Below are positions 9,041 through 32,543 of a stretch of DNA of 64,000 nt, in pieces. Position 1 is the stretch's first letter, and each line of letters begins with the position of its first letter. The translations under genes were made by a program, and so were the position numbers. Below the pieces are notes generated by a model. The model was not told the DNA's origin. It made no database searches and worked only from the letters and a program-made list of their open reading frames with translations. Source of the DNA: an uncultured cyanobacterium (GTDB lineage: Bacteria; Cyanobacteriota; Cyanobacteriia; Cyanobacteriales; Nostocaceae). The stretch is from contig OY970166.1 in the NCBI GenBank assembly GCA_963706595.1, forward strand, positions 2,528,001 to 2,592,000. The letters are read 5' to 3'.

Positions 9041-9315
9041 CTAATCAATAGGAATAGTGATCACGAATTCAGAACCTTTTCCTGGTGCGGAATTCACTTC
9101 CAGACTTCCCTGGTGCTTCTCTACAATAATTTGACGCGCAATTGATAATCCTAAACCAGTACCCTGTCCTACAGGTTTAGTTGTAAATAAATATTCAAAT
9201 ATTTTCTGCTGAACATCATCTGACATTCCCACTCCATTATCTTTGAGATGATTTCTAAATTGGTATTTGTATCATCGACAATTAAAATTAAATCTTTTTT
9301 TGGGAGATTAGACAT
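9041..9315 (-). pseudogene. Internally deleted hybrid response regulator/histidine kinase remnant
   Basis: ATG at 9315 gives MSNLPKKDLILIVDDTNTNLEII (start of a REC domain). This joins out of frame to KDNGVGMSDDVQQKIFEYLFTTKPVGQGTGLGLS...GSEFVITIPID* (end of an HATPase_c domain). Confidence 0.85.
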
Positions 9316-10425
9316 TTTTATTTTTTAGTTTTGATAAATCTTATAATTATTTTTTTGTTTAATTATGCTGAAATGCCGTTGTATTATCTTCTGAGATTTT
9401 TTGAGTCAGTCCGTATTGTTAGAGTACAGAGTCAGAGATATGAGCCAATATTCCTTCTCTGCTTTTCTTCAGAGAGAGTAATCAGGAGGCTAGAACCGGC
9501 TGTGCGATCGCGCTACCCCTTGTTCATTAGCTTTCCCAAAAAGGTGTTGATTCTTACTATTGATATGGAATAACCATACCCAACAGATGGCTTCCACAGG
9601 ATATCTTTGCTCATTTGCATGATCGTCTGGCAATCAGTCATTCAGTTGCGCGACAGACATATACGTTATTTTTTTTAGTTTGTCATCACCTATTTGAATG
9701 ATATTTGCTGTTTATTTAAGTGTTATATGAAAATTATACTAATTTTATTGCTTGTCATTAGATGTATTTATAGGTATAAATAAAGATTTTGCGTGAGAAA
9801 ATTTTGATCTTTTTAAGTTGTAAGTAATGCTAGTAAAAATTATACCTTTGAGAGAGAAGAATAAATTAGTCCTTGAGGTCTAATTAAGAATATTTATAGA
9901 TAAATTTAAGGTTGAATTTAACTGAGAGATATGATGCAAGTAGTAATTTATATGTATTATTACTTAATTAATAAAAACAAAAGGATTTGTGATTTTTTAA
10001 ATATATCGAGGAAACTTCCATAAAATTACTGTTATCATTTTTAAGAAAAAATCAAACAATAGTCATATAAATTCAAATTTAAACCGTAATTTATAGCTTC
10101 AAATGTAGTTACCAGAAGTGCAAAGATAATTTGCGAACAGTATACTTTTCTGGCAAAGTAATCAAACAAATCTAGTGAATCAGAGTTATTTATAGCTCAG
10201 GCTAGAACTCAGCCGTAACTCAATTTTTCAAAAATGAGTTAATAGATGAATTTGTAGTAATTATTCATTCTAATAGACACAAATTCATTGCGTTTGCGTA
10301 GCTAAATAAATCAATTTATTAGGGAATAGGGATATTCATGCAAGAGCGATAGAAATAATTTGCTGATTTATGGTGCAACAGTTAATTTGTCATAACGTAA
10401 ATTATTGAATTAGGGAGATTTAACA

Positions 10426-11139
10426 ATGAGAGAATTACTCGTATTTATTGAAGAAAAAAAACAGGAATTTGCGAGTTTACCATTATTTGAATTCATGAGA
10501 GATCAAAGTATTGATCCCAAAGAAAGGCTTGCTTGGGCATCATACGCGGCTCCTTTTATTATGAGTTTTGGAGACTTAAACAAATATGTTTTTAGAGACG
10601 AACAAAGTAGCGATCCAATTCAGGTAATCATCAACAAACATACTTATGAAGATGATCATCACTGGTTATGGTTTTTAGAGGACTGTCAACTTTTACAAAT
10701 TAACCAAGGAATGCATTCTATCGATGCATTTAAATTTATTTGGGGTCAAGAAACAGAAATGTCTCGCCAGTTAGTGTATAAACTTTGTAGATATAGTTTC
10801 CAAGCTACTTTGATCCAGAAATTGGTATTAATTGAAGTCATCGAAGCAACTGGAAATGTCATGTTTGTAGTTGCATCTACAGTTGGTAAGCAATTTCAGG
10901 AAACTACCCAAACAAAACTTCTTTACTTTGCTGATTTTCATTTAAATGTAGAGACTGGGCATACAACTGGCTCACCTGAAGTAGAAGAATTTATGCAAAA
11001 TATTCAATTGTCAGAAGAAAATCTACAGGAAGCTTATGAACTGGTTGAAAAAGTGTTTGATCTTTTTACAAGCTTTACCAACTATCTTTTAATTCATGCT
11101 CAAGAATCTACAAAGCGCCAAGTTGCAAAAGCTAATTAA
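10426..11139 (+). CDS. Heme-oxygenase-like diiron oxidase (HDO), AetD nitrile-synthase-like
   Basis: 237 aa, helical pattern. Motifs HTYEDDHHW (H72/E75/D76/H79), IEVIE (E140) and FHLNVETGH (H172/E176/H179) match the recalled AetD sequence and ligand spacing. AGGGAG RBS upstream. Confidence 0.85.
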   Translation: MRELLVFIEEKKQEFASLPLFEFMRDQSIDPKERLAWASYAAPFIMSFGDLNKYVFRDEQSSDPIQVIINKHTYEDDHHWLWFLEDCQLLQINQGMHSIDAFKFIWGQETEMSRQLVYKLCRYSFQATLIQKLVLIEVIEATGNVMFVVASTVGKQFQETTQTKLLYFADFHLNVETGHTTGSPEVEEFMQNIQLSEENLQEAYELVEKVFDLFTSFTNYLLIHAQESTKRQVAKAN

Positions 11140-11190
11140 AAAATACTGGCATTCGTCAAAACTCAAGTATAAATTTGAAGAGGAAAAGTC

Positions 11191-12786
11191 ATGAATGTAG
11201 TCACAAACATCGAATACTTAATTATTGGTGCGGGTCCGGCGGGTTTACAGTTGGGTTATTTTCTGGAAAAATCTAATTCTAATTATCTGATATTAGAAGG
11301 ATCTGATATTCCTGGTAATTACTTTACAAATTTCCCTAGGCATAAGAAATTAATTTCAATTAACAAGGTGTATACGGGCTACGATGACCCAGAAATTAAC
11401 CTCAGATGGGATTGGAATTCACTCTTGAGTGATAGTGAAGAAATGAAATTTAAGCACTATAGCAGGCAGTATTTCCCCCACACAGATGATTTGGTTAAAT
11501 ACCTCGGCGATTTTGCCAATCATTTTGAAATTAAGATTAAATACAATTGCCAAGTTGTCAAAATTGCTAAAAATGACAAGTTTATGGTGATAGACAGCAA
11601 TGGGAATATTTATTCGGCAGACCGTCTGATTATAGCGACTGGTTTTTCTAAACCATATATACCAGCAATTCCTGGAATCGAGTTAACAGAAAAATACACT
11701 GATATCTCGATAAATCCAGAAGATTTTGCTAATCAAAAAGTATTAATTATTGGTAAAGGAAACTCTGGATTTGAAACTGCTGACCATTTAGTCGGAACTA
11801 CTGCACTGATTCATATCACTAGCCCATCACCGGTCTCTTTATCGTGGAAAACTAAATACGTAGGACATCTGCGAGCAATCAATAATAATCTCATAGATTC
11901 ATATCAACTCAAATCTCAAAATGTAATTTTAGATGCTATAGTCAATAAAATTGATTATCAGAACGGTCAATACATTGTGACCTTTACTTATGGACATGCA
12001 GATGGAGAAGTTGAGGATTTAATCTATGATCGCGTAATTTTGTGTACTGGATTTTGCTTTGATACTTCTATATTTGACGAGTCATCTGTGCCTGATCTAG
12101 CTATCAACAATCGCTTTCCCAATCAAACTAGTGAATGGGAATCAACTAACATTAAGGACTTGTATTTTATTGGAGTGCTAATGCACATGCGGGATTACAA
12201 GAAGAAGCAATCAGGCTTTATTCATGGGTTCCGTTATAATATTCGTTCCCTTTATCACATTTTAAATCGTAAGTACCATAATCAAGAGTTACCATGTCAA
12301 GAAATTAAACTTACTCCTGAATACTTGGCTAAAGCTATTCTCAAACGGGCAAATCAAAGTTCAGGTTTATGGCAGCAAACAGGCTTTCTTTGCGACCTAA
12401 TTATCGTCCTCAAAGATAGTAACACAGTCAAGTACTACGAAGATATCCCAACAGATTATGTACATGAAAGCGACTTAGGTGAGGAGGAACACTACTATAC
12501 TCTGACTTTGGAATTTGGACTAGATATTATTTTTGCCAGCCCAGATCCTCTTGCTGTTGAGCGCATCCACAAAGATGACATTGATCGAGCCGCACTCAGT
12601 TCTGGTATCCACCCCATCGTTCGCCATTATTGCAAGCATACTCTGATTGCAGAGCATCATGTTATTGAAGATATAGCTAGCGAATGGTTAGAGGATGTAC
12701 ATATTCACCCACTGCTGAAATTCTTGCAATATCAACTATCAAGCAAGGTATCTCTGCCGACATTAGCTTCATCAATCCCCCAATAA
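11191..12786 (+). CDS. FAD/NAD(P)-dependent oxidoreductase, FOXRED2-like
   Basis: GAGPAG FAD motif, PRHKKLISINK, RWDWNSLL, second Rossmann GKGNSGFETA, SGFIHGFRY. Confidence 0.8.
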   Translation: MNVVTNIEYLIIGAGPAGLQLGYFLEKSNSNYLILEGSDIPGNYFTNFPRHKKLISINKVYTGYDDPEINLRWDWNSLLSDSEEMKFKHYSRQYFPHTDDLVKYLGDFANHFEIKIKYNCQVVKIAKNDKFMVIDSNGNIYSADRLIIATGFSKPYIPAIPGIELTEKYTDISINPEDFANQKVLIIGKGNSGFETADHLVGTTALIHITSPSPVSLSWKTKYVGHLRAINNNLIDSYQLKSQNVILDAIVNKIDYQNGQYIVTFTYGHADGEVEDLIYDRVILCTGFCFDTSIFDESSVPDLAINNRFPNQTSEWESTNIKDLYFIGVLMHMRDYKKKQSGFIHGFRYNIRSLYHILNRKYHNQELPCQEIKLTPEYLAKAILKRANQSSGLWQQTGFLCDLIIVLKDSNTVKYYEDIPTDYVHESDLGEEEHYYTLTLEFGLDIIFASPDPLAVERIHKDDIDRAALSSGIHPIVRHYCKHTLIAEHHVIEDIASEWLEDVHIHPLLKFLQYQLSSKVSLPTLASSIPQ

Positions 12787-12787
12787 A

Positions 12788-14329
12788 ATGAATTCAAAAA
12801 TTCAGCATATTTGCATTATTGGTGCGGGCATTAGTGGTCTAGTGGCAGCTAAAACATTTATGGAAGAAAGCTACGAAGTCACTGTGTTTGAGAAGCAGAA
12901 GGGACTTGGTGGTGTGTGGGAAAGTTCTCGGACTTATGTAGGACTAACCACCCAGAATCCTCGTGATACCTATGCGTTCACAGATTATCCTATGCCTGCA
13001 TTTTATCCAGAGTGGCCTACTGCTGAACAGATGCAGAATTACTTGAAGTCTTATGCACAGCACTTCGGAATTGTTGAAAAAATTCGATTTCAAACGGAAG
13101 TTATTCAGATTGAAAGAAAAACTGGAGTACAGCCAGGATGGATAGTTAGCATTAAGTCGAATGATCAGAACACACAGAATAAATACGAGTTTGATTTTGT
13201 TCTCGTGTGTAACGGTATTTTTAATATCCCTAAAATGCCATTCTTCCCTGGGCAGAAAGAGTTTGTAGCATCTGGAGGTCAGGTGCTACATTCTACCGAA
13301 TTAAATGATATTTGCCAGGTTGAGGGTAAGCGGATCATCATTGTGGGCTTTGGCCGGTCTGCAACTGATATAGCTACTCAAATTGTTTCTCAAGCCAAAG
13401 AATGTACTTTGCTGTTTCGACATTCTTTGTGGAAGATGCCGAAATATTTCCTAGGTCTATTCAATATCAAGTATGTTCTGTTAACTCGTTTTGCAGAAGC
13501 TTGGTTTCCTTACCGACACCTGCAAGGGATAGAGTGGGCGCTACATACTATAGGAAAGCCCATCGTATGGGCTTTCTGGAAATTGAAGGAGATTCTCGTG
13601 CGCTTACAGTTCGGTCTTGATAGTTGTGGAATGTTACCTGACAAACCTCTATATGAATCAGTGAACTGTTCGAGTGCGATCGCGCCCACAAATTTTTACA
13701 AGTATTTAGCCTCTGGCAAACTCAAGGCGAAAAAGACAGCGATCGCTCGGTTTAATAGTGATGGAGTAGAACTAGAGAATGGTGAACAGTTACACGCAGA
13801 TGTCGTCATCTTTGGGACAGGATTTCGCCAAGATGTCCCCTTTCTCGAAAACAAGTATCGTCAGATGCTGATTGATGACCAAAGCTATTTCCACTTATAC
13901 CGCAATCTCATCCACCCTAATATTCCTCAACTAGGCTTTGTCGGCTACAACTCCAGTTTCTTTAGCCAACTAACGTCTGAGGTTGGATCATGGTGGTTAG
14001 CTGAGTATGTTAAAGGCAATTTGCTATTACCCTCAAACGCCGAAATGATTCAGGATATGGAAGCAGAAATTTACTGGAGACAAACTAAGTGGCCCGCAGG
14101 TGGAGGTAATGGGGGATGTACATCCCCGTTTAACTTTCATCACCTCGAACAACTGATACAAGATATGAGAGTGAAAAGTCATACTTCTGGCTGGCAGCGC
14201 ATTGCAGAAGTGATGATGCCCGTAAATCCATCCACCTATCAATACATCCGCAAAGAATTACGCGGAAAAAGGCTTTCATCGGCAAATAATTCCGAGATAG
14301 CTGAAAGTTCAGCTATAGAAGTGGGTTAA
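12788..14329 (+). CDS. Flavin-containing monooxygenase (class B, FMO family)
   Basis: GAGISG, GGVW, FMO-like GGQVLHS motif, GFGRSATD NADPH motif, FGTGF. Starts 1 nt after the upstream stop. Confidence 0.9.
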   Translation: MNSKIQHICIIGAGISGLVAAKTFMEESYEVTVFEKQKGLGGVWESSRTYVGLTTQNPRDTYAFTDYPMPAFYPEWPTAEQMQNYLKSYAQHFGIVEKIRFQTEVIQIERKTGVQPGWIVSIKSNDQNTQNKYEFDFVLVCNGIFNIPKMPFFPGQKEFVASGGQVLHSTELNDICQVEGKRIIIVGFGRSATDIATQIVSQAKECTLLFRHSLWKMPKYFLGLFNIKYVLLTRFAEAWFPYRHLQGIEWALHTIGKPIVWAFWKLKEILVRLQFGLDSCGMLPDKPLYESVNCSSAIAPTNFYKYLASGKLKAKKTAIARFNSDGVELENGEQLHADVVIFGTGFRQDVPFLENKYRQMLIDDQSYFHLYRNLIHPNIPQLGFVGYNSSFFSQLTSEVGSWWLAEYVKGNLLLPSNAEMIQDMEAEIYWRQTKWPAGGGNGGCTSPFNFHHLEQLIQDMRVKSHTSGWQRIAEVMMPVNPSTYQYIRKELRGKRLSSANNSEIAESSAIEVG

Positions 14330-14418: not shown

Positions 14419-14463
14419 GTGATGAAGTAAGCAATGGCTAAACGCCGTTGCTTACTTCATCAC
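14419..14463. terminator. Long hairpin, probable bidirectional terminator
   Basis: GTGATGAAGTAAGCAATGGC-taaac-GCCGTTGCTTACTTCATCAC: 20-bp arms with one T/G pair, between convergent genes. Confidence 0.7.
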
Positions 14464-17400
14464 TATCCTATGGGTATTTCAATTACAAACTCAGTACCCT
14501 GTCCCAGTTCAGAATTACAGGTTAACTTACCCTGATGTTTATCCACAACAATCTGATAACTGATTGACAAACCCAACCCTGTACCACTACCTACTGGTTT
14601 CGTAGTAAAAAATGGGTCAAATATTTTTTGCCGCACAGATGCTGTCATACCAAAGGCGTTATCAGCAAACCTAATCTTGAGCATATTAGACTTTGTTAGT
14701 TCAGTGCAAATACGAATTGTGGGACTGCTAATGGTTTGCTCTTTAACTTGTGTCTCTTGCAAGGCATCAATTGCATTGCTAAGAATATTCATAAATACTT
14801 GATTAAGTTGACTAGGGTAACAAGTAATAATCGGTATATCTCCGTATTCTTTGATGATTTTAATTTCACTACAAGTTTGATCTCCAAGTCGTTTTACGTT
14901 TGTAGTATTTTGCTTAAATCGATGCTGCAAAATCATTAAAGTGTTATCCAGCCCCTCATGAATATCAACAGGTTTCATTTCAGATTCATCCAGGCGGGAG
15001 AAATTACGTAAGCCTAAAACGATATTTCGGATACGCGAACTTCCAACTTTCATAGAATCTATAGTTTTAGGTAAGTCTTCTACTAGAAAATCTAGATCAA
15101 TTTCTTCAGCTTTTTCGACAACTTTAGATGCTGGATAGGGATATTCACGTTGATAGACAGCAAACAAGTCTAATAAATCTTCGACATAATCACTAGTATG
15201 AACAAGATTGCCATGAATAAAGTTGATAGGATTGTTAATTTCATGGGCAATTCCTGCTACCATTTGCCCCAAGGAAGACATTTTTTCACTTTGAATTAAT
15301 TGGCTCTGAGTGCGTTGCAATTCCTGTAAAGTTTGCTGCAAATTTTTATTTTTCTCTTTAATTTCTAATGTTCTTTCGGCTACTTTTTCCTCTAAAGTGT
15401 GGTTGTATACCTCCAATCGCTCATTAGCTTGAGCTAAATTTTTGTAAAGCATGGCATTCTCTAGAGAGATTGCTGCTTGGCTAGTCAAAAGTTTGAGAAC
15501 TTCTAAGCGATCGCGTGTAAATGCCCCTGTGGTCAAATTATTTTCTAGGTAAACAATGCCCAGCAATTTACTTTGATTAATCATTGGGATACACAACAAA
15601 CTTTTTGCTTCCTGATGAATAATGTAGATATCTGCCGCTAAGGTAGCTTGAGCTTTTACATCATCAACAACGAATATTTCGCGTGTACGTTTTACATAAT
15701 TAATTAAAGAAATAGGAACATCGGTACTAGATTCTAGAGCAGTTGCTATAAAATTTATGTTAGTATCAATAGAATTTGAACTGTAACTAACGGCAGTAAC
15801 TGTTAAGGTTAATTCATCACTTTCACTCAAAATTAAAACACATTTCGATGCTCCCGCGTTTTCCATGACAACTTCCATTAAAGTCGAAAGAAGTTCCTGT
15901 AATTCAATTTCCCCAGAAAGTGCTTGAGACGCTTTAATGACAGTTGCTAAGTCCAGCATATCTGACATACTAGTATTAGAACTAACCATAGCTTCATTAG
16001 TAATTAAGATAGATTTATTACTAGGGTTAGATTGAGTTATGCTACTTTCAGAGGTACTTATTTCACTAGAATGTAGGTTCAGCTTTTCTGCTTGAATAAT
16101 AGACTTCAGTAATTGAGAATAGCGTTTTTCTAAGTCGTTTACTTTTGCTAATGCACCCCACCGAACATAGCTATAGTAAGCATCAGTTAGGTAAGTTTGG
16201 GCAATCTTCTGCTTACCCCATTCTAAATAAAACTTACTGGCAAGTTCTTGAGCCAGAGCTTCTTCATGGATATATTCATGTTCATGAGCCAGGGAGATGG
16301 CACGGTCATAATATTCCATTGCCTCCAAATATTGAGCCAAAATACGATATTTTTCAGCCTCTATCAAATAAAATTTATGTAAATGATTTATCGGCACATG
16401 ATCTGCCCATTTACGTATCTTTTGTTGATTAGCTAGTACTTTAGCCAAGATTTGTTCTTGTTGAGATGGCTCGGCATCATCATATATAGCCAGCAATGCT
16501 AGAGAACTATAAAAATATAATTGCGGAACCACAAACTGTCCAATTCCACTAGGTAAATACTGCTCTGCTATGACAGCATTTTTAACTGCTTCAGGGTAAT
16601 TGCCAAATAGATAACACAAATAAAGTTTACATAGATAAACATACAAAAGTGCAATTCCATCATTAGCTTTTATCTGAACTGGCAGGATTTTTGTCTCATC
16701 ATAAGCTTCACCAATCAAATGGCAGGGATTTTCAACAGCACCCATTAAATTTAATACTGTCTGTCGATAAATTTGAATCCAGTAAAAAACGCCATCCTGC
16801 TTAATTTGGCAGGCGGCATAACTGTAGTTTGCCATTTCCCGCTCAAGTTGGGTCAGTTCCTGACCGCTAAAATAGGAAATGTAGCAGTATGAATATAAAG
16901 AATAAGCAGCGAATTCTAAATCTCCTGTTTCTAATCCAACAGCATAAGCTTCTAAAAGAGGCTGTAAAACTTCCTTAATCGGTTCCTTCCAATGCCTGAC
17001 ATGAGCATTAAATGTTTGGATAATTTTAGATTTAATTTCTTTAAGATTAAAGCGTGATGATAGACTTATAGCTAATTTGCCAAACTGATAACCAAGTTCA
17101 ATATCTTCCAAAGGACCACACAGCATTAAACCATAGGCAACATATGCAAAGGCCGATAAGGGAGAATTACCATATTTAAGCGATAAATTAACTTGTTTCA
17201 AGCAAATCAGAGGCATCAGTTCAGGAACAGACTGATAAGCCAGAGCAATTGCACTGGACAAAATACGCATGATTGCCAATGGTTCTGCTTGCTTCATCTC
17301 TGGTAAATCAATTAATTCTTCTATGTTGCGATTAACCAGAATTGAAGTTGTTATTTCCATTTCTTTCTGAACATCAGTCTGGCTAGGATGCTCTGGAAAT

Positions 17401-20110
17401 TGCACTCCCAACAATGTCAAAAAGGCTAGTGCAGTTTTGACAGCTTTTATTGCTTTACCCTGCGCCCCATAAGCCTGGATTGTGACTTCATAAACTTTTA
17501 CCTTCTCCAATAATGTATTAGCTTTTGCTAACACAACCTGAACCAGTTGCTCTGTCTGCTCAAATTCGCCATTCAAATATGCCGCCTCTGCCGCAGCCTC
17601 ATATAAAGCTAGGGTTAGCTCATATTTAATATCCCAACTATCACCCGCCAGCAGTTTAATTCCAGTCGTTAAATACTTAATCGCAGCTGAGTAAGCTGTG
17701 GATGCTAAAGCTTTACGTCCAGCAATCAGGTTCATTTCAGATAGCTCATCGCGCTTAGTTTGCTCTGTGATGAATTCAATTGCAATGTTAAGCTGATTAA
17801 CCAAAATAAAAATATTTTCTTCCCTCTGCTCAATAGGGATGTCATTAAATAGCAATAGCCCTATTTTTAGGTGAATTATTTTTTTTTGTTCAATAGGAAT
17901 TAAGGAATAAGCAGCTTGTTGCACCCGGTCATGTACAAAGCTATATTTGGGTAATTTATTATTATTATTAGTTATTAATTTGTGTGATTCTTCTCTATTA
18001 GAAACTTCTGGCTGTTTATACTCATCTTCTGACAAAGAATTGTATACTTCATTTTGAGGCAAAACTAAACCATCAAGCAAGGCTGGCCATAAATCATTTG
18101 CTGTATCTACTATAGATTTTTCATGAATAGTGGCAAGGGTTTTTAAGTCGAATTCATTACCAATACAAGCCGCGGATATCAACAAGTCATGAGTAATTTT
18201 GGGCAGTTTTTTGATTTGAATTGCCATGAATTCTACTACATCGTCTGTAAGAGTTAATGCTTGAATTCTTGTAATATCATACTGCCAGTGACCAAGATCC
18301 AAATTCAATGTAATTAGTCCATCATCATGTAAAGACTTCAGGAATTGAGTCACAAAGAAGGGATTTCCTTTTGTTTTAGCAAATACAATTTGTGTCAAAG
18401 GAACAGCAACTACTTCTTGACAATGCAATGTATCAACAATCAAATCATTTAAATCTGATTGATTGAGGGGTGAAAGAGTTATGCTATTAATAGTTGCTCC
18501 TGTTTTAGCAATTTCTTGTAATGTCAAATTTAATGGATGTGCATTTGAGACTTCATTATCACGGTATGCACCAATCACTAATAAACTCCCATTATCCTTC
18601 ATTATCCTGTGCATTTTGTCTGTAACAATAGAAGCTGTAGCTTCACTCATTAATAATTGGATAAAATTCAAAGAATCTTTATCTGCCCATTGCAAGTCAT
18701 CCAGAAAAATTACTAAAGGATGCTCTTTAGTATTAAAAATTTGTATGAATCTCTGGAACAATAAGTTAAACCGATTTTGGGCAGCACTACCAGAAATATC
18801 TGTAGCTGGAGGTTGTTTACCAATAATCATTTCTAGTTCAGGAATTACATCAGTAATTACCTGACCATGCGTACCCAATACTGATAAAATTTTCTCCTTC
18901 CACTGTTGAATTTGAATATCAGTTTCCGAAATTAGTTGGTCAATTAAATCCCTAAAAGCTTGTACTAATCCTGACAAAGGGGTATCATGTTGAGATTGAT
19001 CAAATTTACCCTTTATAAAGTAGCTACGCTGTCTGACAATCGGCTTATGAATTTCGTTGACTATAGCAGTTTTACCAATCCCGGAAAAACCCGTGACTAA
19101 TATCATTTCTGTTGTCCCGTGTGTCACGCGGTTAAAACTGGCGAGTAGAGTTTTAAGTTCACGTTGACGGCCATAAAGTTTTTCGGGAATAATAAAACAG
19201 TTAGAAATATCTCGACTTCCTAATTCAAAATTTGCAATATCTTCTTTTTCTTGCCACTGCTTGCGGCATATTTCTAAGTCATGCTTGAGTCCATATGCAC
19301 TTTGATAACGGTCTTCGGCATTTTTTGCCATTAGCTTGCTGATTATCTCAGACAAGATGGGGGAATATTAGGGTTAATCTGGCTAGCTTTTGGCGGTTCT
19401 TTTGCAATGTGCGAGTATACTAACTCTATTGGGTCAGTGCTGCTGAAGGGTAACTGTCCCGTGAGGAGTTCAAAGAAGGTAACACCTAAAGAATAAAAAT
19501 CAGTGCGGTAGTCAATACCTCGATTCATACGTCCCGTTTGTTCGGGAGAAATATAAGCTAGTGTGCCTTCTAAAACGTTAGGATTTGTAATAACTTGAAT
19601 TTGTTTCGGTAAGAGACTCGCAAGACTAAAATCGATGATTTTAATCTCATTAGTCTTGGGTTTAATGAGAATGTTAGCGGGTTTGATATCCTTGTGAATG
19701 ATGCGATGGTGGTGTAGTCCTTCCAGTGCGGAAGAAACTTCAATAGCAATATGGAAAAACGCAGTTAAAGAAACCGGATTTTTCTCCATGTCCGGCTTTT
19801 TTTGTTGCCAATCTTTAAGAGATATACCGCCAAAGTCTTCCATGACTAGGATATAGCCGTTGCCGTAGTTTTCCAAACTATGGGGTTTGACAACTCCGGG
19901 TATATCCAGGTTTTGGGTAATACTGTATTGATTACGGAACTGAGCGATTTCAGCAAAAGTAGGATATTCATTCCGCATCAGTTTGAGGATCACAGGTTTT
20001 TGATCTTGTTCTCTGATGCCCCGATAAACTAGGGTTTTGCTACCTGAATAGATTGGCTCAGTAATCCGATAGCCAATTATAGGGTATACAGTATCTAATC
20101 CTACTAACAT
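14463..20110 (-). CDS. Multidomain Ser/Thr kinase - AAA ATPase - GAF - histidine kinase (HstK-like), split by a frameshift at about 19360
   Basis: ORF 19343-20110 has IHKDIKPAN, DFS, GTLAYISPEQTGR. ORF 14463-19355 has Walker A GFSGIGKT, FLDDLQWAD, GAF, H-box AHEINNP, G-box GTGLGLS. One extra base in the G5 run at 19359-19363 restores NIPPILSEIISKLMAK. Confidence 0.88.
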
Positions 20111-29956: not shown

Positions 29957-30397
29957 TTACCACTTTTTGTAGGGGAGAAACTTACCAGACATAATAACTT
30001 TAACGCGATCGCCTTTGGGGTCTGATTCTTTCTCTACATCTAAAGTAAAGTCAATGGCGCTCATAATACCGTCGCCGAATTTATCATGAATCACGGCTTT
30101 AATGGGCATTCCGTACACCTGCATAATCTCATAGAAACGATAAATCAGTGGATCAGTGGGTACAACAGGACCTAATCCTTTGAGCGGACATTCAGTTAAC
30201 TGTTGAATATAGATCGGACTTAATCCCAATGTTTGCACCAGTAACTGAGCTTCTTCTGGGGAAGCGCTGGCTTGTCGGTAGAACACAGCCGCAATCCATA
30301 CTTCGTCACGTCCGAGAATTTTTTCTAAATCGGCAAAACTCAATTGTTTCTCTTGTTTTGCTGCTAAAAGCTGTTGAGTAATTTCGGGAATAGACAT
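29957..30397 (-). CDS. cynS: Cyanase
   Basis: [28 protein letters not shown]. Confidence 0.97.
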
Positions 30398-32087: not shown

Positions 32088-32543
32088 CTAGACATCTTTG
32101 TTGAGATTTTCCAAATGATCTTGCATTCGAGATACCACATTTAGATCATCTGCACCTGCGGGAGTTTTGGATTCAATAATACCTTCTGTCGGACCGCCGA
32201 TTTCTTTCCAGGCAGCTAAACCACCTTTGAGTTCAGAGACATGATTAAATTTAGCATTACGGAGCATTCTAGCGGCTTGGGCAGCTTGTTGATCATTCTC
32301 TCCGTAGACATAAATATCACGATTTTTATCTAAAGATGACGAGCTTCGATCAACCAACTCATCCATTGGCATCGGCATCGCCCCCATAATATGACCCTGA
32401 TTGTAGGTGAGGCGATCGCGCACATCTAAAATTGTAAAAGCTGGTTCGCCCCATTCCAAACGAGACTTAACAGCATAAACGTCAGACTGTGTTTTTACTG
32501 GTGGTTGTGAGGGAATAATAGCATCTAGTGGATTAGTATCCAT
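32088..32543 (-). CDS. Rhodanese-like domain protein (no catalytic Cys)
   Basis: ILDVR, GHIMGA, LKGGLAAW; the active-site loop reads YVYG. Confidence 0.88.
   Translation of the reverse strand: MDTNPLDAIIPSQPPVKTQSDVYAVKSRLEWGEPAFTILDVRDRLTYNQGHIMGAMPMPMDELVDRSSSSLDKNRDIYVYGENDQQAAQAARMLRNAKFNHVSELKGGLAAWKEIGGPTEGIIESKTPAGADDLNVVSRMQDHLENLNKDV

Follow-up and report, generated by a model that had tools for sequence, protein, structure and literature searches.

We analyzed a window of 64,000 nucleotides (nt) from an uncultured member of the Nostocaceae (assembly GCA_963706595.1, contig OY970166.1, positions 2,528,001-2,592,000, forward strand), and in particular a predicted operon of three genes within it (Table 1): a heme-oxygenase-like diiron oxidase (gene 1), a flavoprotein of the ERFAD/FOXRED2 family (gene 2), and a flavin monooxygenase (FMO; gene 3). 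ERFAD and FOXRED2 are presumably one and the same protein. On balance, we favor reading this as an skt-type operon that would take tryptophan to a haloskatole, with the halogenase replaced by an unrelated enzyme. A preliminary description, made from the sequence letters, had proposed a candidate undescribed nitrile or N-oxidation pathway and knew of no described cluster with this trio; the claim of a new nitrile pathway falls. The core pathway is already known, genes 1 and 3 match sktA and sktC, and the refuting condition named in that description, a trio that maps to a characterized cluster, applies to two of the three genes. Only the middle gene is undescribed.

The point of reference is the skt cluster of Nostoc punctiforme NIES-2108, for which the available text of Adak 2025 (PMC11869266) reports that SktB brominates tryptophan at position 5, that (bromo)skatole, cyanide, and bicarbonate arise when SktA cleaves (bromo)tryptophan, and that SktC is an FMO, obtained insoluble. 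Our locus L021 is this published cluster, its open reading frames (ORFs) being identical to the sequences in the supplement of that paper. The window operon has the same three-gene layout, with identical order and spacing; genes 1 and 3 correspond to SktA and SktC at the level of orthologues, and a convergent sensor kinase of the same kind follows the cassette in both places. The difference lies in the middle, where a non-homologous ERFAD/FOXRED2-family protein stands in place of SktB. As far as the text and supplement text of PMC11869266 go, neither the gene-2 variant nor the kinase is mentioned.

The middle gene

Gene 2 aligns over its whole length with a fish FOXRED2 (36% identity over 585 columns, residues 8-520, E 2e-112) and with two further animal FOXRED2-like proteins at 34-35% identity, and the homology covers both the FAD/NAD(P) and the C-terminal domains (atlas score 0.98; Pfam match Pyr_redox_3). 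The likeness to FOXRED2 given in the preliminary description is thus borne out, and its aside that such flavoenzymes may halogenate has held up well. The Rossmann strand starts at residue 7, so there is no endoplasmic reticulum signal peptide, as expected for a bacterial member. Gene 2 has no similarity to SktB, no match to PF04820 (Trp_halogenase), and no WxWxI, the motif of classical flavin-dependent halogenases (available text of PMC13519999). The host genome, a single 5.57-Mb contig that is 94% complete, likewise holds no PF04820 match.

The only ERFAD-family enzyme with an assay that we found is the sponge protein OroF, a stand-alone brominase that mono- and dibrominates pyrroles with or without an added reductase; it is 43% identical to human ERFAD and is described as an unexpected class of halogenase related to ERFAD, whose own reaction is unknown (PMC12833800, available text). 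No bacterial family member is named in that text. Gene 2 differs from OroF and animal ERFAD in being bacterial, in lacking a signal peptide, in belonging to a separate clade, and in its indole rather than pyrrole context. The gene-context line and the OroF line are independent, the halogenase idea having been drawn from context without the OroF paper. Going by homology and gene order, gene 2 probably halogenates tryptophan.

AetF and Bmp5 offer a second comparison. Gene 2 shares with them the group B architecture of FAD and NAD(P)H domains with extra C-terminal structure, and its K241, in the region of the NADP-domain insertion, may correspond to the catalytic lysine of AetF (K258; PMC10306068, available text). 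K241 is conserved in 47 of 48 diverse homologues and lies in a loop (217-243) that is modelled at pLDDT <50. They differ in that neither gives a sequence match to gene 2 among the 60 best PDB matches, and in that the C-terminal domain of gene 2, folded alone at pLDDT 93, finds no clear counterpart in the PDB (best Z 4.5; Foldseek E 0.22 at best). AetF is absent among the matches listed for gene 2 (30 from Foldseek, 50 from VIA-align, and 60 from the profile search), and absence from such a listing is no test. A possible likeness of gene 2 to PsmG of the physostigmine cluster, taken to be a tryptophan hydroxylase, was dropped, as no literature support was found; the available text of PMC8403405 has the hydroxylase of that cluster as not identified.

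The gene-context line comes from a survey of the middle slot, in which the neighbors were classified at the best 80 of 85 confirmed oxidase loci plus the window (81 loci). In 36 of them the slot is taken by an SktB-type halogenase, in 21 by gene 2 (two of these cut by contig ends, and four more short or with <300 bases of flank on one side), and in 2 by a CmlS-like halogenase; no two of the three occur together. An FMO is present in 43 loci: 33 with an SktB-type gene (among them L007, where the FMO is second in order), 7 with gene 2, and 3 with no such gene. Counting an extra copy beyond the survey (L169), the window-type trio of oxidase, gene 2, and FMO is found at 8 loci, so that the trio is conserved; the preliminary description was right to see here a small pathway that acts on a free amino acid independently of nonribosomal peptide synthetases. 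A quick oxidase tree has the slot switching between gene 2 and halogenase at least 7 times (L058, for example, is sister to L061). Among 401 cyanobacterial genomes sampled, the oxidase is present in 47 and gene 2 in 5; the four gene-2 copies at 67-100% identity all adjoin an oxidase.

Other occupants of the slot were also seen. A CmlS-like halogenase takes the middle place of an skt variant in L192, L193, L201, L025, and L043, and in the first two of these, which come from further regions, the layout is oxidase, CmlS-like gene, and FMO. At L045, L068, and L073 a prenyltransferase sits beside the oxidase instead, which suggests that the slot installs a ring substituent. It is an aromatic prenyltransferase or a tryptophan DMATS, with a P450 in two of the three, and these loci are candidate prenyl-skatole pathways. 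The aetokthonotoxin producer Aetokthonos hydrillicola encodes a gene-2 homologue at 73% identity (P0135).

Several points weigh against a halogenating gene 2 in an skt-type operon. An independent-pairs test of the exclusivity gives 2.8 for and 0 against (p 0.25), which is not significant, and an O-methyltransferase follows gene 2 in 3 of its 21 loci vs 0 of the 36 SktB loci. The authors of OroF hold that halogenation arose by duplication within sponges (PMC12833800, available text), the cyanobacterial gene-2 proteins form a clade of their own apart from the animal ones (support 99), and the kinship of gene 2 with OroF would run through fish FOXRED2, not through a direct alignment. The long flavoprotein fusions of the oxidase all involve the gene-2 protein and none a classical halogenase, a pattern that also fits a redox partner. 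The cation/H+ antiporter that neighbors some gene-2 homologues, and is fused to one (P0256), was considered as a marker of halide chemistry; in a control, a halogenase occurred at 0 of 15 close cyanobacterial antiporter loci (7.8-17 kb each) and at 2 of 4 plasmid loci, and with no support found in a literature search the antiporter is a weak hint only. Gene 1 carries isoleucine at position 139, unlike the threonine of SktA, though this position is variable among close SktA orthologues (T, I, or L in those linked to sktB). Finally, the evidence gathered here consists of homology, residues, gene order, and exclusivity, and the chemistry comes only from SktA and OroF.

The same observations can be read in two other ways that leave the skatole core in place. 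Gene 2 could be an oxygenase that hydroxylates the indole ring or nitrogen, with a methyltransferase, if present, giving a methoxy product. The predicted fold speaks for this: the core of the gene 2 model (pLDDT 81) is group B monooxygenase/Bdr-like, and its nearest structures are the class B flavin monooxygenases 3d1c and 4a9w (best Z 23.5). The O-methyltransferase loci (L006, L064, and L069) point the same way, as do other methyltransferases in L066 and L089, and a distant homologue in L116 stands with a class III aminotransferase and a MetRS-like gene, a setting known for amine N-hydroxylases. We nevertheless regard an oxygenase as unlikely: an O-methyltransferase also follows an oxidase without gene 2 (L050), a hydroxylase offers no reason for the strict exclusion of halogenases, and the sole assayed family member found is a brominase (PMC12833800, available text).

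Alternatively, gene 2 could be a reductase that brings the oxidase's diiron site back to Fe(II), in which case the operon would yield plain skatole and its oxindole. Assays of SktA used ascorbate and Fe(II) (PMC11869266, available text), Bdr/YpdA and thioredoxin-reductase folds also rank near the top in fold searches of gene 2, and 26 of 28 long oxidase homologues are fusions to a gene-2 protein (in related sequences, which are not independent events). Against this, 60 of the 81 oxidase loci lack gene 2, most of the distant gene-2 homologues have no diiron neighbor, and gene 2 occupies the place of a halogenase and lacks the CxxC of thioredoxin-reductase-type disulfide reductases. A reductase seems improbable to us, and we keep to a halogenating gene 2.

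The oxidase, the monooxygenase, and the proposed steps

Gene 1 is 58% identical to SktA over 236 amino acids (aa). The preliminary description had called it AetD-like, and AetD is indeed a PDB match (E 3e-51), with ~40% identity counted from that alignment. All six metal ligands are intact (D76, H79, E140, H172, E176, and H179, the iron ligands of AetD), and gene 1 also shares the substrate contacts F48 and Y167 with AetD (PMC11611611, available text). The residues that tell the two enzymes apart are T139, T142, and F214 in SktA vs M139, A142, and S214 in AetD (PMC13108848, available text). Of the second-sphere residues of gene 1, T142 and F214 are of the SktA type and position 139 is isoleucine, and the M139/A142/S214 pocket of AetD is not present. 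Because gene 1 is nearer SktA than AetD and carries T142 and F214, the nitrile that had been proposed is the less likely product and skatole the likelier core product; judged by identity and residues, gene 1 very probably makes skatole. The window operon also differs from the aet cluster in having three genes only, with no P450 or tryptophanase adjoining.

Two observations on related oxidases stand beside this. Homologues in Microcoleus (L076, L077, L079, and L080) lack D76, H79, and H172, and are probably metal-free or non-catalytic. The host genome has a second AetD/SktA-like oxidase, at L167:6466-12958 (G000:C1:1586465-1592957), which is 46% identical to gene 1 and has no tailoring genes.

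Gene 3 is 54% identical to SktC over 511 aa, and its family had been named correctly as FMO (FMO-like, E 2e-51). Its clade (≥53% identity) is found in 14 of the 401 cyanobacterial genomes sampled, beside an oxidase in 9 and apart from one in 5. Its top PDB matches are an ancestral FMO2 and then DiatB, which we take to be a nitrile-forming FMO acting on prenyl-tryptophan; such a route has reportedly been seen in one study.

These matches, together with the AetD match of gene 1, are what speaks for a trio that yields a nitrile or oxime, whether gene 1 performs a rearrangement like that of AetD or gene 3 N-hydroxylates tryptophan, and the FMO homologues found apart from any oxidase would fit it, needing no skatole next door. 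It is nonetheless an improbable reading, given that gene 1 sides with SktA in identity and at T142 and F214, that DiatB scores no better than mammalian FMO2, and that AetD grouped with no other sequence in the analysis of Adak et al. (PMC11869266, available text).

For the skt-type operon that we favor, the steps would be as follows. In the first, gene 2, with FAD, NAD(P)H, O2, and halide (most likely bromide), would halogenate the indole ring of free tryptophan, needing no separate reductase, like the sponge OroF on pyrroles. In the second, gene 1 would act as SktA does and cut the C-alpha/C-beta bond, giving (halo)skatole, cyanide, and CO2. In the third, gene 3 would oxygenate the C2-C3 bond of the indole toward a 3-hydroxy-3-methyl-oxindole such as bromoanaindolone; the chances that gene 3 makes an oxindole seem to us about equal either way, and the rest of the scheme does not require it. 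The adjacent kinase, with its GAF domain, may read the product as a diffusible signal, a suggestion that comes from linkage only.

The operon, its surroundings, and the linked kinase

Sequence features predict that genes 1-3 are a real operon. The closest named relatives for its locus are Nodularia-like Nostocales. As the preliminary description had it, three co-oriented genes are separated by gaps of 51 nt (genes 1-2) and 1 nt (genes 2-3), with plus-strand ORFs over exactly the span it gave, and a long leader and a strong terminal hairpin flank them. It had also listed ribosome-binding sites (RBS); purine-rich RBS-like sites do precede genes 1 and 2, but gene 3 has none, its start lying 1 nt past the stop of gene 2.

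Table 1. Features of the operon and its surroundings, in window positions
Feature	Position	Strand	Length	Basis
Gene 1: SktA-like heme-oxygenase-like diiron oxidase, probable skatole synthase	10426-11139	+	237 aa	SktA identity, AetD match
Gene 2: ERFAD/FOXRED2-family FAD/NAD(P)H flavoprotein in the SktB slot, candidate single-component halogenase	11191-12786	+	531 aa	
Gene 3: SktC-like class B flavin monooxygenase	12788-14329	+	513 aa	SktC identity
AT-rich non-coding leader, presumed promoter region	9245-10425	+		Conserved in L001
20-pair hairpin separating the operon from the convergent kinase gene	14419-14463	.		Folding vs shuffles
AAA-GAF-histidine kinase part of the sensor	14463-19355	-		Pfam AAA_16, GAF, HisKA, HATPase_c
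Ser/Thr kinase part of the same sensor	19343-20110	-		Pkinase

The leader amounts to ~1.18 kb of non-coding sequence and is 86% identical across 1180 nt to locus L001. Promoter-like sites are not enriched (20 vs 22.8 in shuffles), and no promoter was identified in the leader. The hairpin (-38.4 kcal/mol) has a z of -10.2 on the plus strand, with 0 of 200 shuffles as good, and of -7.2 on the minus strand. It directly adjoins the stop codon at the end of the convergent kinase gene, has no U tail, and is not among the results of the terminator scan; it is probably a shared terminator or an RNA-stabilizing stem, to judge by its fold and place.

The convergent gene encodes a sensor whose reading frame is broken at 19343-19355, where a short homopolymer run contains a one-base frameshift. 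Its two ORFs, in different frames, correspond to residues 5-267 and 262-1872 of a single intact homologue, and the homologues are single ORFs of ~1,880 aa; the frameshift may reflect a real pseudogene or an assembly error. A gene of this Ser/Thr kinase-AAA-GAF-histidine kinase type is present in at least 56 of the 81 loci. The host genome has 3 such kinases, and each of its two oxidase genes lies tail to tail with one of them (in the window and at L167, where the kinase is intact). This suggests that the oxidase cassette is a signal synthase with its own sensor, a suggestion drawn from linkage only, among non-independent kin and with the window kinase frameshifted.

A second regulatory link may exist in some lineages. 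C-terminal motifs of the MshE type, which bind cyclic di-GMP (c-di-GMP), were found in L046:1272-2489, L050, L055, L061, and L075 and in P0399 and P0413; the carriers are oxidases, gene-2 homologues, one O-methyltransferase, and some fusions, and 3 of 3 tested pass the cut-off. The motifs suggest second-messenger control of the pathway.

Two further observations concern the flanks. At 9041-9232 the window has a 63-aa remnant of a histidine kinase, in a place where L001 retains an intact 435-aa gene, so that ~1 kb has been lost from the host genome. A cyanase gene (29957-30397) and a rhodanese-domain gene (32088-32543) lie 15-18 kb downstream of the operon, which probably releases cyanide. They were considered as pathway members and are treated as unlinked, no cyanase being found in the flanks of 80 related loci.

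The wider family and its meaning

The gene-2 family comprises 587 clusters at 50% identity (E up to 1e-30). Its wider context was viewed at 85 loci, many of them short, where the commonest neighbor is an FMN-dependent alpha-hydroxy-acid oxidase (17), followed by a P450 and a cation/H+ antiporter (15 each), an AMP-binding enzyme (11), and a sulfotransferase (6); the flanks of these 85 contain no SktB- or CmlS-like gene. Fusions of family members to FAAL-ACP, IDO, an antiporter, and an MFS transporter suggest that the family tailors varied substrates. Two distant gene-2 homologues have a nitroreductase-family gene as neighbor (L114:1837-2562, L117); the one tested is iodotyrosine-deiodinase-like and convergent with the gene-2 homologue, and we count this in favor of a halogenating gene 2. 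Of 301 genomes in a Myxococcota-centered search, 1 contained the family, too few for counts of context.

Some clusters deserve mention in their own right. A recurring high-GC cluster (L087, L095, L148-L151, L155, L162, and L165) combines an aromatic amino acid lyase or AMP-ligase with a gene-2 homologue, an alpha-hydroxy-acid oxidase, a P450, and a cation/H+ antiporter. A non-cyanobacterial fusion of oxidase and flavoprotein (781 aa) was found at L200:2484-4829, in a genome that also holds L062, a Silvanigrellales record.

Taken as a family, the bacterial ERFAD/FOXRED2 homologues may be an unrecognized and widespread class of single-component halogenases, acting here on tryptophan; we see as much reason to believe this as to doubt it. 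The literature that we searched, mostly outside subscription journals, yielded no description of the trio or of a bacterial ERFAD-type halogenase. What makes the present operon useful is a natural swap: here a bacterial family member takes the place that elsewhere belongs to a proven tryptophan brominase, and the substrate of the replacement becomes guessable.

If gene 2 is a halogenase, it would open a new reductase-free family to biocatalysis and genome mining (the 587 clusters), one that classical halogenase motifs miss, and it would have a bearing on the chemistry of human FOXRED2. If the whole family halogenates, the activity would be ancient within it and not an invention of sponges, and hundreds of bacterial clusters would have to be counted as halogenation clusters that now carry the label "thioredoxin reductase" or "NAD(P)-binding protein." The small, soluble gene 2 protein would then serve as a model for human FOXRED2, for which no reaction is known. 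For the cyanobacteria themselves, the skt cassettes are shown to be modular and tied to a sensor kinase. They would form a modular system for differently substituted skatoles, and their products may be signals for a dedicated kinase, under c-di-GMP control in some lineages.

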